Shown here in pieces: positions 1,405 through 33,484 of a stretch of DNA of 64,000 nt. The notes beneath the pieces were generated by a model. It worked only from the letters and a program-made list of their open reading frames with translations. It ran no database searches and was not told where the DNA came from. The position numbers and the translations under genes are program-made. Source of the DNA: Escherichia coli O127:H6 str. E2348/69 (GTDB taxonomy: Bacteria > Pseudomonadota > Gammaproteobacteria > Enterobacterales > Enterobacteriaceae); NCBI RefSeq assembly GCF_000026545.1, contig NC_011601.1. One strand, written 5' to 3'. Every line of letters begins with the position of its first letter. Within the stretch, counting starts at the first letter, position 1.

Positions 1405-2391
1405 ATGATACGTTTCGCTGTGATTGGTACGAACTGGATCACTCGCCAGTTCGTCGAGGCCGCCCATGAGAGCGGTAAATACAAGTTAACCGCCGTTTAT
1501 TCCCGCAGTCTTGAACAGGCCCAGCACTTCGCCAATGATTTTTCTGTCGAGCATCTGTTTACGTCGCTGGAAGCGATGGCAGAAAGCGATGCCATTGACG
1601 CGGTGTATATTGCCAGCCCGAATTCCCTGCACTTTTCCCAGACACAACTTTTCCTTAGTCACAAAATTCATGTGATTTGCGAGAAACCGCTGGCGTCGAA
1701 TCTGGCGGAAGTGGATGCCGCCATTGCCTGTGCGCGGGAAAATCAGGTGGTGCTGTTTGAGGCATTTAAAACGGCCTACCTGCCGAACTTTCATCTGTTA
1801 CGCCAGGCGCTGCCGAAAGTCGGCAAACTGCGTAAAGTCTTTTTCAACTATTGCCAGTATTCCTCGCGGTATCAGCGTTACCTGGACGGAGAGAATCCCA
1901 ACACCTTCAATCCGGCATTCTCCAACGGTTCGATTATGGATATCGGCTTTTACTGCCTGGCGTCGGCGGTGGCATTATTCGGTGAACCGAAAAGCGTGCA
2001 GGCAACCGCCAGTTTGCTGGCAAGTGGTGTGGATGCCCACGGCGTGGTGGTGATGGATTACGGTGATTTCAGCGTTACGTTGCAGCACTCAAAAGTGAGC
2101 GATTCTGTCCTGGCAAGCGAGATTCAGGGCGAAGCGGGATCGCTGGTGATTGAAAAACTGTCTGAATGCCAGAAAGTCTGCTTTGTATCGCGTGGCAGCC
2201 AGATGCAGGATCTCACCCAGCCACAGCATATTAATACCATGCTCTACGAAGCAGAGCTGTTCGCTACCCTAGTGGATGAGCATCTGGTGAATCATCCAGG
2301 GCTGGCGGTCAGTCACATCACCGCCAAACTGCTGACTGAGATCCGCCGCCAGACTGGGGTGATTTTTCCGGCAGATAACGTAAAACTATAA
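1405..2391 (+). CDS. ygjR: Gfo/Idh/MocA-family NAD(P)-dependent oxidoreductase
   Basis: ORF 1387..2391; start at MIRFAVIGTNW gives 328 aa; Rossmann N-terminus. Confidence 0.8.
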   Translation: MIRFAVIGTNWITRQFVEAAHESGKYKLTAVYSRSLEQAQHFANDFSVEHLFTSLEAMAESDAIDAVYIASPNSLHFSQTQLFLSHKIHVICEKPLASNLAEVDAAIACARENQVVLFEAFKTAYLPNFHLLRQALPKVGKLRKVFFNYCQYSSRYQRYLDGENPNTFNPAFSNGSIMDIGFYCLASAVALFGEPKSVQATASLLASGVDAHGVVVMDYGDFSVTLQHSKVSDSVLASEIQGEAGSLVIEKLSECQKVCFVSRGSQMQDLTQPQHINTMLYEAELFATLVDEHLVNHPGLAVSHITAKLLTEIRRQTGVIFPADNVKL

Positions 2392-2423
2392 TTGCCAAAG
2401 TAAAACAGTGTAAAAGGCATGTA

Positions 2424-2673
2424 ACAGACCATTGACTGACTGAATGGTCTGTCATACTTTGTTACCTGCAAAGGGGAGTAACTTCATTGTCGGTCGATCG
2501 TCATTACGATGTGTGAAAAACCACATCCGGTCACCGGGCAACCCGAAAGGAATACGCAGACGTATTCCTTTTTTGTTGTAAGTGAGACCTTGCCGGAAGG
2601 CGAGGTCTATGCATAAAAAGCAGCGGCTGACGTCTTCCGACGTTGGCCGTTTTTTTATGTGTAAGGAACTTCT
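2424..2673 (+). promoter_or_regulatory. alx 5' leader (pH/Mn2+-responsive riboswitch-type element) with two hairpin + U-tract structures
   Basis: Hairpin aaaggaatacg..cgtattcc + T6 at 2546-2575; hairpin ggctgacgtc..gacgttggcc + T7 at 2625-2657 immediately 5' of the alx SD (gtaaggaa) and ATG at 2674. Confidence 0.55.
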
Positions 2674-3639
2674 ATGAATACTGTCGGCACGCCGTTGCTA
2701 TGGGGCGGATTCGCTGTTGTTGTCACCATTATGCTGGCTATCGACCTGTTGTTGCAGGGGCGTCGTGGGGCACATGCCATGACCATGAAACAGGCTGCGG
2801 CCTGGTCGCTGGTCTGGGTGACGCTGTCGTTACTGTTTAACGCCGCTTTCTGGTGGTATCTGGTGCAAACCGAAGGTCGCGCCGTTGCCGATCCACAAGC
2901 ACTGGCCTTTCTCACGGGTTATCTGATTGAGAAATCGCTGGCGGTCGATAACGTCTTTGTCTGGCTGATGTTGTTCAGCTATTTCTCTGTTCCGGCGGCA
3001 TTACAACGCCGCGTGCTGGTGTATGGCGTGCTTGGGGCGATTGTTCTGCGTACCATCATGATCTTCACCGGTAGCTGGCTGATTTCACAGTTCGACTGGA
3101 TCTTGTATATCTTCGGCGCATTCCTGCTGTTTACCGGCGTGAAGATGGCGCTCGCTCATGAAGATGAATCAGGCATTGGCGACAAGCCGCTGGTGCGCTG
3201 GCTACGCGGTCATTTGCGCATGACCGACACCATCGACAACGAGCATTTCTTTGTGCGTAAAAATGGTTTGTTGTATGCCACGCCGCTGATGCTGGTGCTG
3301 ATTCTGGTGGAGTTGAGCGACGTGATTTTCGCCGTGGATAGTATTCCGGCTATCTTCGCCGTGACCACCGATCCGTTTATTGTGCTGACCTCAAACCTGT
3401 TTGCGATCCTCGGCCTGCGTGCGATGTATTTCCTGCTGGCAGGTGTGGCAGAGCGTTTCTCGATGCTCAAATATGGTCTGGCGGTGATTCTGGTGTTTAT
3501 CGGTATCAAGATGCTGATTGTCGACTTCTACCATATTCCGATCGCCGTCTCGCTGGGCGTGGTGTTTGGCATTCTGGTGATGACGTTTATTATCAACGCC
3601 TGGGTGAATTATCGGCATGATAAGCAGCGGGTAGAATAA
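2674..3639 (+). CDS. alx: TerC-family inner membrane protein Alx (putative Mn2+ exporter)
   Basis: 321-aa ORF, multi-pass membrane protein; synteny. Confidence 0.9.
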
Positions 3640-3710
3640 TTTTTAATCTGCCTAAGCCGTGTACTCTGTCATCAACATGAGCACCGTTTTCTCCCTCTCC
3701 CCAAAAGGGG

Positions 3711-5260
3711 CTGTCTCTTATACACAAATCCCCACCCGGGGATTTGTGATGTCTGTCAGTCTGCTTTAGGGGGACTCTTTCCATCCGGTAGTTTCCTTCC
3801 TCCCCGGCAGCGATTTTTTGAACTTTTTCCTCACCCGTTGATCTTCTCTTATATTTCATTTTCTTCGGGTCTGTTATGGTACTTTCTGATTGTTATTCAT
3901 GGGCTAACGAGCAGTTTGGACATGCCCGTCTCGGTGATCCGCGTCGTACACGACGCCTTGTGTCACTGGCCTCTTCTCTCGCTCAGCATGCAGGTCTTTC
4001 TATTGTGAAATCATCCCAGTCCACTGCTCAGGTTGAAGGTGCGTACCGCCTGATACGTAACCCGTCTGTGTCCCCGCAAGCCATTGCCGAAGCCGGATTT
4101 ACCGCCACTGTAAGGGCATGTGAGGCTCATCCGCTGCTCCTCGCGCTGGAAGACACCACCACCATTAACTTCAGTCACAGTACGGCATCTGATGACCTGG
4201 GGAATACCACCACTAACCCGAAGACGCGCGGGCTGCTGGCTCACTCTGTCCTGATGTACGCCCCCGACAGCGCCCTGCCAGTCGGTCTTATCGAACAGCA
4301 GCGCTGGAGTCGTGCCACGGACACCTACGGTGTTAAGCACCAGCGAAAAGAACGTCCCTATGAAGAAAAAGAAAGTTACCGCTGGCAGCAGGCTTCGGAG
4401 CGCATGGCCGAACGGCTGGGGGAGATACAGAAACGGGTAATCACTGTCTGTGACCGGGAAGCGGATATCTGGCATTACCTGCATTATAAAGTCAGCCACG
4501 GGCAGCGCTTCGTGGTGCGTGCAGCACAGAATCGCCGGCTGGAAGAAGCACCCGGCAAGCTCTTCGAACTGCCGGAAGTCCTGGCAACCGCGGGAAGCCA
4601 CACGCTGAATGTGATGCAAAAAGGCGGGCGGGCAGCCCGCCAGGCCCGGATGTTCATCAGTTACAGCGAAGTCAGCATAAAAAACCCCGACAACAGCGGC
4701 CAGGCGCTCCCGCTCACGTATGTCTGTTGCCGGGAGCAGGCAGAGGACGGCGCCTGCTGGCATCTGCTGACGTCAGAAAAAGTGGCGAGTGCCGCCGATG
4801 CGCGACGTATCGTCAGCCATTACGAGCGACGCTGGCTGATAGAGGAATACCACAAGGCGTGGAAAAGTGGTGGTACATGTGTGGAATCGCTGCGAATGCA
4901 GACCCGGGATAACCTCGAGCGCATGGTGGTTATCAAGGCGTTTATCGCGGTGCGGGTGCTGGGCCTGCGGCAGGGCGGTATCAGTGAAGAAACACAAAAT
5001 GACAGCTGTGAGAAAATACTGACGCCGACAGAGTGGAAACTGCTGTGGGTTAAGCTGGAAGGAAAACCGCTTCCGTCACAGATGCCGACACTGAAATGGG
5101 CCTGTCTGAAACTGGCGAAACTGGGGCGATGGCATGACAGCAAACGCACCGGTCGCCCCGGTTGGGTAGTCATGTGGGATGGCTGGTTCAGACTTCAGGA
5201 TATGGTTGAGGGTTACCTGGTGATGAAGTCTCTTGATCAGGAGATCTGATCAAGAGACAG
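3711..5260 (+). mobile_element. IS4-family insertion sequence, IS50/Tn5-like (about 1550 bp)
   Basis: Left end ctgtctcttatacacaaat (3711-3729) and right end agatctgatcaagagacag (5242-5260), inverted; one transposase ORF; flanked by identical ccaaaagggg at 3701-3710 and 5261-5270. Confidence 0.85.
3876..5249 (+). CDS. DDE transposase, IS4 family (Tn5 Tnp-like)
   Basis: 457-aa ORF; LGDPRRT N-terminal motif, catalytic-region motifs ALEDTT, VCDREADI, YERRWLIEEYHKAW; stop codon lies inside the right terminal repeat as in IS50. Confidence 0.9.
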   Translation: MVLSDCYSWANEQFGHARLGDPRRTRRLVSLASSLAQHAGLSIVKSSQSTAQVEGAYRLIRNPSVSPQAIAEAGFTATVRACEAHPLLLALEDTTTINFSHSTASDDLGNTTTNPKTRGLLAHSVLMYAPDSALPVGLIEQQRWSRATDTYGVKHQRKERPYEEKESYRWQQASERMAERLGEIQKRVITVCDREADIWHYLHYKVSHGQRFVVRAAQNRRLEEAPGKLFELPEVLATAGSHTLNVMQKGGRAARQARMFISYSEVSIKNPDNSGQALPLTYVCCREQAEDGACWHLLTSEKVASAADARRIVSHYERRWLIEEYHKAWKSGGTCVESLRMQTRDNLERMVVIKAFIAVRVLGLRQGGISEETQNDSCEKILTPTEWKLLWVKLEGKPLPSQMPTLKWACLKLAKLGRWHDSKRTGRPGWVVMWDGWFRLQDMVEGYLVMKSLDQEI

Positions 5261-5522
5261 CCAAAAGGGGCGAGGGGACTGACCGAGTACTTTTTTGACG
5301 TTGTCATCAGTCTGGAAGCCGCACGTTGGGCTTTATTTTCATGTCAAACAAATGTAACCATTAAGTTGCGAAATATGACTTCTCTTTAAAATCCAGCATA
5401 TTTCGCTTCCCGAAGCTGTAACTTTCCTTATACTCGACCTTGCAAACACTTTGTTACATCCTGAAAGATGCGTCGACAGAACGCACCAGGGATGTGCGAC
5501 AACACAATGAAAGGATCGAAAA

Positions 5523-6767
5523 ATGACTACGCAACATTCACCGGGGCTATTCCGGCGTCTGGCTCATGGCAGCCTGGTAAAACAAATCCTGGTCGGCCTT
5601 ATTCTGGGGATTCTTCTGGCATGGATCTCAAAACCCGCGGCGGAAGCTGTTGGTCTATTAGGTACTTTGTTCGTCGGCGCACTGAAAGCCGTTGCCCCCA
5701 TCCTGGTGTTGATGCTGGTAATGGCATCTATTGCTAACCACCAGCACGGGCAGAAAACCAATATCCGCCCTATTTTGTTCCTCTATCTGCTGGGCACCTT
5801 CTCTGCTGCTCTGGCCGCAGTGATCTTCAGTTTTGCCTTCCCTTCTACCCTGCACTTGTCCAGTAGCGCGGGTGATATTTCGCCGCCGTCAGGCATTGTA
5901 GAAGTGATGCGCGGGCTGGTAATGAGCATGGTTTCCAACCCCATTGACGCGCTGCTGAAAGGTAACTACATCGGGATCCTGGTGTGGGCAATTGGCCTCG
6001 GTTTCTCACTGCGTCACGGTAACGAGACCACCAAAAACCTGGTCAACGATATGTCGAATGCCGTCACCTTTATGGTGAAACTGGTGATTCGCTTCGCACC
6101 GATCGGTATTTTTGGTCTGGTTTCTTCTACCCTGGCAACCACCGGTTTCTCCACGCTGTGGGGCTACGCGCAACTGCTGGTGGTACTGGTTGGCTGTATG
6201 CTGCTGGTGGCGCTGGTGGTTAACCCACTGCTGGTATGGTGGAAAATTCGTCGTAACCCGTTCCCGCTGGTGCTGCTGTGCCTGCGCGAAAGCGGCGTGT
6301 ATGCCTTCTTCACCCGCAGCTCTGCGGCGAACATTCCGGTGAATATGGCGCTGTGTGAAAAGCTGAATCTGGATCGCGATACCTATTCCGTTTCTATTCC
6401 GCTGGGAGCCACCATCAATATGGCGGGCGCAGCAATCACCATTACCGTGTTGACGCTGGCTGCGGTTAATACGCTGGGTATTCCGGTTGATCTGCCCACA
6501 GCGCTGCTGTTGAGCGTAGTGGCTTCTCTGTGTGCCTGTGGCGCATCCGGCGTGGCGGGGGGGTCTCTGTTGCTGATCCCACTGGCCTGTAATATGTTCG
6601 GTATTTCGAACGATATCGCCATGCAGGTGGTTGCTGTCGGCTTTATTATCGGCGTATTGCAGGACTCCTGTGAAACCGCGCTGAACTCGTCAACTGACGT
6701 GCTATTCACTGCGGCAGCTTGCCAGGCGGAAGACGATCGTCTGGCAAATAGCGCCCTGCGTAACTAA
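5523..6767 (+). CDS. sstT: Serine/threonine:Na+ symporter
   Basis: 414-aa ORF, polytopic membrane protein, recognised sequence. Confidence 0.95.
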
Positions 6768-6770
6768 TAC

Positions 6771-7322
6771 TTAGCCCCTTTCGTCTACGGCGGAAGGGGT
6801 TTTCTCCACTTTAAACGGATCAATTCCCCTTCTCTGCATACGCCAGAAACGAATGATATTCAGGCCATTCATCAGCAGAAAACTGCCTTCAATCATCGTG
6901 CCGCCTATCGACCCCGCCCAGAAGTTGTGAATCACCCAGCAACACGTTGAAAACCACATTACGCAGCGCATGGTCAGCCCTTTACAGCGGAACAGCGCCC
7001 AGGTACTGACAATCGTGCCGATTACCGGCAATAGTTCGACAGGATGATGGAACTTCGCGAGGCCAATTCCGCCAGTCAGCACAATAAAAATCGCCATTAC
7101 CCATAAGCTGCGCGTGCGTAAGGTAATCAATGTACGAATGGCATTAAGGATGGCACTGGCACCGGCAGGATAGGTGCCCAGAAGAAAAAAATGTACGCCA
7201 ATAACGGCGCTATAGACCGAAAGTTGCTTTTTGAAGCGACGTTCGTCACGATTGAAAAATGTTGTGATACCAATCAGAAAGGCGATGACACCCACGCCCT
7301 GGGCCAGCCAATACGCGGTCAT
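6771..7322 (-). CDS. ygjV: Inner membrane protein YgjV
   Basis: 183-aa hydrophobic ORF; synteny between sstT and uxaA. Confidence 0.85.
   Translation of the reverse strand: MTAYWLAQGVGVIAFLIGITTFFNRDERRFKKQLSVYSAVIGVHFFLLGTYPAGASAILNAIRTLITLRTRSLWVMAIFIVLTGGIGLAKFHHPVELLPVIGTIVSTWALFRCKGLTMRCVMWFSTCCWVIHNFWAGSIGGTMIEGSFLLMNGLNIIRFWRMQRRGIDPFKVEKTPSAVDERG

Positions 7323-33107: not shown

Positions 33108-33484
<377 letters not shown>

Follow-up and report, generated by a model that had tools for sequence, protein, structure and literature searches.

The DNA analyzed here is a 64,000-nucleotide window of Escherichia coli O127:H6 E2348/69 in which an insertion sequence (IS) stands between alx, its upstream neighbor, and sstT. 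The features that bear on its placement and its possible effects are as follows (positions are those of the window).

2674..3639, + strand: alx CDS, TerC-family Mn exporter, the upstream neighbor (TIGR03718, 402 bits; RefSeq)
3661..3710, + strand: left half of a split GC-rich palindrome, the probable alx terminator; outer arm GTACTCTGTCA at 3661-3671, inner arm CCCTCTCCCC at 3693-3702
3701..3710: left copy of the 10-bp target-site duplication CCAAAAGGGG (direct repeat; empty-site comparison)
3711..5260, + strand: ISEc13, IS4 family, IS50/Tn5 subgroup, 1550 bp (inverted repeats, transposase, RefSeq)
3711..3729, + strand: terminal repeat at the left end, CTGTCTCTTATACACAAAT, which agrees at 17/19 positions with the Tn5 outside end and at 17/19 with the mosaic end (both end sequences from PMC3347997)
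3723..3748, + strand: perfect 11-bp hairpin just inside the left end of ISEc13
3876..5249, + strand: transposase CDS, 457 aa, full-length homologue of the Tn5 transposase with DDE and YREK residues
5228..5258, + strand: perfect 13-bp inverted repeat, made up of the right end and its inverted subterminal copy, with the transposase stop codon inside it
5242..5260, - strand: right terminal repeat CTGTCTCTTGATCAGATCT, with GATC sites
5261..5270: right copy of the 10-bp target-site duplication CCAAAAGGGG (direct repeat; empty-site comparison)
5271..5296, + strand: the split palindrome's right half, CGAGGGGAC, with outer arm TGACCGAGTAC at 5280-5290, then the T-run at 5291-5296
5315..5334, + strand: weak terminator-like hairpin, with no other site of this kind between the IS and sstT (-8.5 kcal/mol, z -0.3, no better than shuffled sequence)
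5338..5522, + strand: block upstream of sstT conserved across the three natural alleles of the E. coli spacer (alignment of the E2348 empty site, K-12 and EC596)
5407..5441, + strand: native sstT promoter (TTCCCG, 16-nt spacer, TATACT at 5429-5434; start site mapped from K-12 to about 5441)
5497..5515, + strand: C/A-rich stretch CGACAACACAA with Shine-Dalgarno AAGGA in an 82-nt 5' UTR; likely GcvB pairing region, its exact site inferred
5523..6767, + strand: sstT CDS, serine/threonine:Na+ symporter, 414 aa

The element at 3711-5260 is an annotated IS with ordinary biology. It matches E2348/69 at 100% and is called ISEc13 on the strength of its RefSeq/PGAP label ("IS4-like element ISEc13 family transposase"); the sequence-only reading had left it unnamed and had not mentioned the palindrome, or terminator-like hairpin, of alx. 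Its terminal inverted repeats (CTGTCTCTT.../...AAGAGACAG) start with 5'-CT, and these ends and its length fall within the published description of the IS50 subgroup (5'-CT; 1350-1550 bp; PMC2266710). The transposase is encoded by one ORF with no frameshift, matches NCBIfam NF033590 (IS4 family) at 514 bits against a cut-off of 160, bears the subgroup signature Y-2-R-3-E-6-K alongside DDE, and aligns over its full length with the Tn5 transposase (E 6e-84), with EDTT, CDREAD and YERRWLIEEYHKAWK aligned. As in IS50/Tn5, this single ORF runs from an outside-end-like to an inside-end-like terminus, with its stop codon within the end; the left end resembles the Tn5 outside end, and we take the right end to match the IS50 inside end, GATC sites included. 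ISEc13 differs from Tn5 in the length of its transposase (476-477 aa in Tn5), in the perfect 13-bp hairpin at its right end, which no U tract follows, and in its high copy number in one strain, since it is found at about 29 places in E2348/69.

Removal of the IS and of one repeat yields a reconstructed empty site of 641 bp that aligns with no gaps and at 100% identity to the corresponding sequence of the IS-free strains RM14723 and 2015C-4136CT1. ISEc13 at this locus is thus a real insertion with a 10-bp duplication, and, judging from that identity, it appears to be recent as well. The geometry given by the sequence-only reading proved correct: the IS splits the alx-sstT intergenic region, the gap to sstT (5261-5522) is exactly 262 bp with the ATG at 5523, the transposase is co-directional with sstT and reads toward it, and the interval singled out, 5242-5525, begins with the right inverted repeat and ends with the start codon of sstT. 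Duplications generated by ISEc13 measure 8 bp at nine sites, 9 bp at five and 10 bp at one, so that 14 other copies agree with the 8-9 bp of the IS50 subgroup and the alx-sstT copy, confirmed against the empty site, departs from IS50/Tn5. Among 5426 complete E. coli genomes, ISEc13 is present between alx and sstT in just 5, three of which are E2348/69 assemblies. In two unrelated strains, 1002W03 and Rb-23, whose backgrounds differ from E2348/69 by 1.3%, the element is inserted 5 bp to the left in the same orientation, with the duplication CTCCCCAAA. A shared ancestral insertion is rejected because the junctions and duplications differ; ISEc13 entered this interval independently in E2348/69 and in 1002W03/Rb-23.

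Thirty-six unique ISEc13 half-sites, drawn from 10 genomic loci, 17 viral contigs and the window, define a palindromic target, CCCCT-N8/9-AGGGG, with C at positions -13 to -10 in 26-33 of the 36 and T or C at -9. Arm positions 2-4 are paired in 14-15 of the 15 full sites. Of the 12 empty sites that were reconstructed, 10 rank within the lowest 3.5% of the background in folding, and the 12 taken together fold much better than the background does (Mann-Whitney p = 3e-8). A relaxed form of the motif occurs just twice in 62 kb of the window, one occurrence being at 3693, in the hairpin 3' of alx, which gives the location of the IS a concrete and testable explanation. The E2348/69 insertion itself fits the consensus register poorly, with its atypical 10-bp duplication; that in 1002W03/Rb-23 fits well. 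The targets are C-tract/G-tract terminator stems and a dispersed GC-rich repeat, of which a genome has a median of 5 places. Among 10 other ISEc13 copies, orientation showed no bias toward downstream genes. We also considered whether the C-rich or the G-rich arm dictates the orientation of the IS, and rejected this, as CCCC...GGGG is self-reverse-complementary and one other site (L010 versus L026) carries ISEc13 in both orientations.

On the downstream side, the identity of SstT follows from a match to the equivalog NF010151 (704 bits, cut-off 308) together with an alx-sstT-ygjV gene order that is the same as in K-12. SMRT-Cappable-seq in K-12 places the sstT start site at NC_000913.3:3239862 and shows the gene to be monocistronic (PMC6131387 supplements); the Cappable-seq supplement has no entry for this start site, and papers on GcvB and Lrp list no coordinates. 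Mapped onto the window, the start site lies 181 bp from the end of the IS, and an alignment shows no difference between K-12 and E2348/69 over the stretch that starts at about -47 from it (window 5394) and ends with the ATG. Farther upstream the spacer varies naturally: K-12-type genomes (about 2900) have 75 extra bp in the same loop that ISEc13 entered, and in a third allele (about 1670 genomes) everything between the alx stop codon and about 5337 has been replaced. The block common to the three alleles begins 78 bp downstream of the IS, at about 5338, and hence no conserved sstT control DNA has been cut. The sequence-only reading had also raised the possibility that upstream regulatory DNA was disrupted; with the start site so distant, and with the sequence 5' of the conserved block replaced or expanded in natural alleles, this part is not supported. 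A GcvB site lies within the sstT 5' UTR (PMC11347164), and Lrp has been reported to bind the sstT promoter. A literature search found no paper naming both E2348/69 and sstT.

On the upstream side, RNA of the empty site (3659-3710 joined to 5271-5296) is predicted to form a compound hairpin (-29.5 kcal/mol, z -3.7) that starts 22 nt past the alx stop codon and whose stem ends directly at UUUUUU, the GC-rich stem-loop and U tract near a stop codon that characterize an intrinsic terminator. ISEc13 lies in its apical loop, 71 bp past the stop codon, and the hairpin and T-run that it broke are probably the terminator of alx. By RNA folding, the right half alone is unable to form a terminator. An Rfam scan of 2300-6900 gave no match at E ≤ 1, and over the whole window only rnpB reached the gathering score, so no known RNA element is interrupted.

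Could the IS nevertheless alter the expression of sstT, either by transcription running on from the transposase gene or by the loss of upstream regulatory DNA? Activation of downstream genes by outward or hybrid promoters is well known from IS1, IS5, IS10 and IS50L (the Tn5 resistance operon), and ISEc13 shares with these elements a position upstream of, and co-directional with, a gene. Moreover, no convincing terminator lies between the transposase stop codon and sstT (5250-5440), and the remaining half of the alx hairpin would no longer stop transcription by itself; with no strong terminator in the way, low-level read-through into sstT, from the transposase gene or from alx deprived of its hairpin, may occur. 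Unlike the activating elements, however, ISEc13 has no outward -35 or full promoter that we could find in its right end: no match of at least 8/12 was present, the best on the + strand in 5000-5260 being 7/12, a stricter scan of the right end was negative, and no hybrid promoter was found at the right junction. The promoter candidates of the transposase gene are themselves weak, and any read-through would presumably be weak too. Because the native promoter and start site, identical to those of K-12, stand 181 bp beyond the IS in a control block that ISEc13 did not enter, downstream of a spacer that thousands of genomes have replaced or expanded, we regard a change in sstT expression by these routes as quite improbable. 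The gene more plausibly affected is alx, since the insertion splits its probable terminator. Its mRNA, having lost the 3' hairpin, might run into the IS and, under alkaline or Mn induction, reach sstT and couple the two genes; the direct abutment of hairpin and U tract in the empty-site RNA, the position of the IS in the apical loop, the absence of any terminator-like site found on the + strand within the IS and the monocistronic nature of sstT in K-12 are all consistent with this. However, the alx 3' end is absent from the Term-seq and SMRT-Cappable-seq supplements (Term-seq lists only the leader attenuator), K-12 and 1002W03 show poor conservation of the outer stem, Rho would have access to 1.8 kb of RNA that is poorly translated, and the weak hairpin at 5315-5334, which is retained, might be the true alx terminator. 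We thus consider a main effect on alx somewhat unlikely, while noting that breakage of its probable terminator is a more plausible transcriptional consequence than an effect on sstT.

One could also envision that recurrent insertion in the same orientation reflects parallel evolution, that is, positive selection favoring a change in alx or sstT expression, and not the element's preference for its target, given two independent events 5 bp apart in backgrounds 1.3% different. Yet the site is one of only two target-motif matches in 62 kb, recurrence is seen at another site and there in both orientations, two of two events would share an orientation half of the time by chance, and very few genomes carry the insertion; we therefore hold selection to be very improbable indeed. 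The explanation we favor, and consider probable, is that ISEc13 was drawn by its own preference for palindromes, that the sstT promoter and control region are intact, and that the insertion is an ordinary, near-neutral one. Under such a scenario, a cut-and-paste DDE element modelled closely on IS50/Tn5 would, in the lineage of E2348/69, have inserted itself at the apex of the GC-rich palindrome just past alx because it targets such palindromes, the site being set by the CCCCT-N8/9-AGGGG preference, typical of GC-rich terminator stems and of the dispersed extragenic repeat, and not by selection on sstT. Because sstT would retain its promoter, the 5338-5522 block, for which Lrp binding has been reported, and the 82-nt leader that GcvB targets, its expression is most likely unchanged, or marginally raised via weak read-through, and the insertion may well be neutral for it; a transcriptional effect would more likely come from alx RNA entering the IS past the broken hairpin. 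For sstT the insertion then matters little, as the evidence suggests that the gene is intact and under its own regulation, and transcript data should precede any reading of it as regulatory rewiring.

The target motif is the sole potentially new point in the case of ISEc13: we found no published description of its target specificity, and the papers found to mention the element name it only within lists. The Tn5 consensus is weak, in contrast to the strong palindromic motif of ISEc13. Tentatively, as a proposition with somewhat less than even chances, we suggest that ISEc13 represents a natural element of the Tn5 type whose specificity for CCCCT-N8/9-AGGGG is strong and apparently undescribed, and which would therefore home to tolerant GC-rich terminator stems and to a dispersed extragenic repeat; this would explain both its roughly 29 places in one enteropathogenic strain and its recurrent arrival between alx and sstT. 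If the motif is indeed undescribed, a sequence-selective member would join the Tn5 subgroup and the tolerance of so many copies in a single EPEC strain would be accounted for, and a relative of the Tn5 transposase that selects its sites would be of interest to mobile-DNA researchers and to transposase engineers. In entering extragenic palindromes, often between convergent genes, in having symmetric target arms around a duplicated core and in sparing coding sequences, ISEc13 resembles IS231 (GGG-N5-CCC), ISRm22 (IS4 family), IS1397 and ISKpn1; it differs from them in its motif and in belonging to the IS50 subgroup, and, unlike that of the REP-targeting elements, its target is not a canonical REP/BIME.

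The sequence-only reading had an insertion sequence 262 bp upstream of sstT with its transposase pointing toward that gene, and the coordinates confirm every particular of this geometry: the gap between the IS end (5260) and the sstT ATG (5523) is exactly 262 bp, and transposase and sstT are co-directional. The window matches E. coli O127:H6 E2348/69 at 100%, and the locus is laid out as follows.

2674–3639, + strand: alx (TIGR03718, 402 bits)
3711–5260, + strand: insertion sequence ISEc13, 1550 bp, delimited by its terminal repeats
3876–5249: single transposase ORF, 457 aa (NF033590, an IS4-family model, 514 bits)
5407–5412 (TTCCCG) and 5429–5434 (-10 hexamer TATACT), start site at about 5441: sstT promoter, mapped from K-12
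5523–6767, + strand: sstT (NF010151, 704 bits)

The terminal repeats of the element are CTGTCTCTTATACACAAAT (left) and CTGTCTCTTGATCAGATCT (right, - strand), and direct repeats of CCAAAAGGGG at 3701–3710 and 5261–5270 bracket it. The transposase, named "IS4-like element ISEc13 family transposase" in RefSeq, aligns end to end with Tn5 transposase (PDB 1MUH, 4DM0 and others; E 6e-84), and the alignment shows the DDE and YREK residues to be present. ISEc13 works like IS50/Tn5, and it behaves as a member of the IS50 subgroup of the IS4 family in all that we compared except the duplication length of the copy in this window. The element itself, annotated in a published genome, is not new and holds little interest; what may be new is limited to its target motif and its recurrent insertion in the alx hairpin.

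The insertion in E2348/69 is real and lineage-specific. With the IS and one repeat copy removed, the resulting 641-bp empty site aligns without a gap at 100% identity to RM14723 and 2015C-4136CT1, both of which lack the IS; for CFT073, Nissle 1917 and ATCC 25922 the identity is 99.8%. The target duplication therefore has a true length of 10 bp, which is atypical of ISEc13: 14 other copies have duplications of 8 or 9 bp, and 8–9 bp is also the length given for the IS50 subgroup (PMC2266710). Among 5426 complete E. coli genomes, ISEc13 lies between alx and sstT in just 5, three of them being assemblies of E2348/69 itself. Copies at 99% identity or more occur in only about 18 records, and E2348/69, with ISEc13 in 29 places, is near the observed maximum.

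The location of the element here is best explained by a target preference. The empty site is a GC-rich palindrome, CCCTCTCCCC-AAAA-GGGGCGAGGGG, with the IS positioned at its apical loop; an outer stem (GTACTCTGTCA / TGACCGAGTAC) encloses this inner palindrome and is followed directly by TTTTTT. Folded as RNA, the whole structure reaches -29.5 kcal/mol (z = -3.7), a value matched by none of 200 shuffles. For comparison we used ten places in one genome, picked without regard to their flanks, together with 17 viral-contig loci: 10 of 12 reconstructed empty sites have folding energies in the bottom 3.5% of a background of 50-nt windows (Mann-Whitney p = 3e-8). In a matrix of 36 unique half-sites, numbered from the junction, C occupies positions -13 to -10 in 26–33, followed by T or C at -9 and then by the duplicated core of 8–9 bp, and the ISEc13 target is therefore the palindrome CCCCT-N8/9-AGGGG, which in the window falls at 3693–3710 and 5261–5279. 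Where both flanks are available, arm positions 2–4 are paired in 14–15 of 15 sites, and weak symmetry continues outward (31/75, p = 0.001) as well as into the duplication termini (24/45, p = 4e-5). Terminator hairpins that separate convergent genes, such as those at agp/yccJ and satP/mog, account for many of the sites. In its relaxed form, CCCY-N8/9-RGGG, the motif is found at just two positions in the 62 kb of the window minus the IS, where shuffles lead one to expect 7.7, and one of the two, at 3693, is the alx hairpin. We found no published description of this motif, ISEc13 being merely listed in the 8 papers that name it. Palindromic preferences are likewise reported for IS231 (GGG-N5-CCC) and for the IS4-family element ISRm22, which inserts into REPs, although their motifs differ from that of ISEc13 (PMC2266710, PMC1525189).

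The same hairpin has been hit in two strains from Japan, 1002W03 (river water) and Rb-23 (human). Relative to the E2348/69 site, their ISEc13 (about 1650–3205 of loci L002 and L003) is shifted 5 bp leftward; its duplication, CTCCCCAAA, is 9 bp long, and the register agrees with the consensus (CCCT|N9|AGGGG); the flanks differ from those of E2348/69 at 1.3% of positions, and the IS copies by 3–4 nucleotides. These are separate events, which makes the alx hairpin a hot spot. Both events share one orientation (chance probability 0.5). The target reads the same on both strands and so cannot dictate orientation; at another site both orientations are found in different genomes (loci L010 and L026), and the ten genomic copies show no bias toward co-directional downstream genes. 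At two loci on CP148541.1 (L011 and L012, at about 2.304 and 2.364 Mb), ISEc13 copies lack matching duplications, and the left flank of L011 matches the right flank of L012 and vice versa, which is the signature of a roughly 60-kb inversion via recombination between the two copies.

The interpretation offered with this geometry is partly supported; it proposed two effects on sstT, disruption of its regulatory DNA and read-through from the transposase. In K-12, sstT (b3089) is monocistronic and starts at NC_000913.3:3239862, 82 nt before the ATG (SMRT-Cappable-seq; PMC6131387 supplements), 7 nt past a TATACT hexamer. K-12 and E2348/69 are identical without indels from about -47 relative to this start (5394) through the ATG, so that the start site maps to about 5441, 181 bp downstream of the IS end; the native promoter is intact in sequence. 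The alx-sstT spacer has three natural alleles in E. coli: the E2348/69 type, which is the short form; the K-12 type (about 2900 genomes at ≥95% identity), with 75 extra bp of GC-rich palindromic repeat at the same loop that is hit by the IS; and the EC596 type (about 1670 genomes), in which the whole stretch between the alx stop and about 5337 has been replaced by unrelated sequence. Homology common to all three resumes at about 5338 (about -103 from the sstT start), which defines 5338–5522 as the conserved sstT control block. It takes in the region of Lrp binding and repression (PMC10127797) as well as the GcvB-bound 5' UTR (PMC11347164). ISEc13 lies 78 bp outside this block, and disruption of regulatory DNA is contradicted.

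Read-through into sstT would probably be weak. Promoter scans found no outward promoter in the right end of the IS (best match 7/12, and none in a stricter scan), in which ISEc13 differs from an IS that supplies one, and the candidate transposase promoters are weak. Past the transposase stop, neither a hairpin scan nor folding revealed a convincing terminator: the perfect 13-bp hairpin at 5228–5258 is without a U tract, that at 5315–5334 (-8.5 kcal/mol, z -0.3) folds no more stably than shuffled sequence, and the orphaned right half of the split palindrome pairs with its own T-run. Low-level read-through toward sstT would be physically possible.

On the other side of the element lies a consequence that the sequence-only reading did not raise: the structure that ISEc13 breaks is the compound hairpin and T-run, which from its predicted fold probably terminates alx, a gene induced by alkaline pH and Mn. 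A terminator scan gave no terminator-like site on the + strand inside ISEc13, from which we infer that alx transcripts could run into the IS; the alx 3' end was not found in the 3'-end maps consulted. By sequence comparison, pairing of the outer stem is poorer in K-12 and 1002W03. The alx leader (2440–2673) contains AAAGGGGAGTA and presumably holds a pH/Mn-responsive yybP-ykoY-type element; an Rfam search of it gave no match even at E ≤ 1.

The 75-bp insert of the K-12 spacer (2600–2700 of the K-12 locus, L004) belongs to a dispersed GC-rich palindromic repeat with units CCCTCTCCC / GGGAGAGGG / GGGTGAGGG, which occupies a median of 5 sites in each genome and resembles the "boxC" extragenic repeats; other copies are likewise ISEc13 targets (L011 and L012). 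The EC596 allele (338–770 of its locus, L032) comprises an unrelated stretch of about 430 bp, GC-rich and structured, with a full-length, sub-threshold match to the TwoAYGGAY RNA (RF01731; 36.6 bits against a gathering score of 43, E 7e-4).

The left end of ISEc13 (3711–3729) matches the Tn5 outside end at 17 of 19 positions and the engineered mosaic end equally well, sharing a T at position 4 with the latter; the right end (5242–5260) equals the IS50 inside end. The 5228–5258 inverted repeat (GTCTCTTGATCAG / CTGATCAAGAGAC) consists of the right terminal repeat plus a subterminal copy of it in inverse orientation; it spans the transposase stop codon, is predicted to be a strong RNA hairpin and carries three GATC sites. 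Just inside the left end, a perfect 11-bp hairpin (3723–3748; CACAAATCCCC / GGGGATTTGTG) could protect the transposase against transcription or translation entering from outside, as it does in IS10 and IS50. The Tn5 inhibitor protein starts at Met56; at the corresponding position (residues ~44–50) ISEc13 has AQVEG and no Met, and it may be without a Tn5-style Inh product. Across the whole window, rnpB (bacterial RNase P class A RNA; 33108–33484, - strand, 319.7 bits) alone among Rfam families reaches its gathering score.
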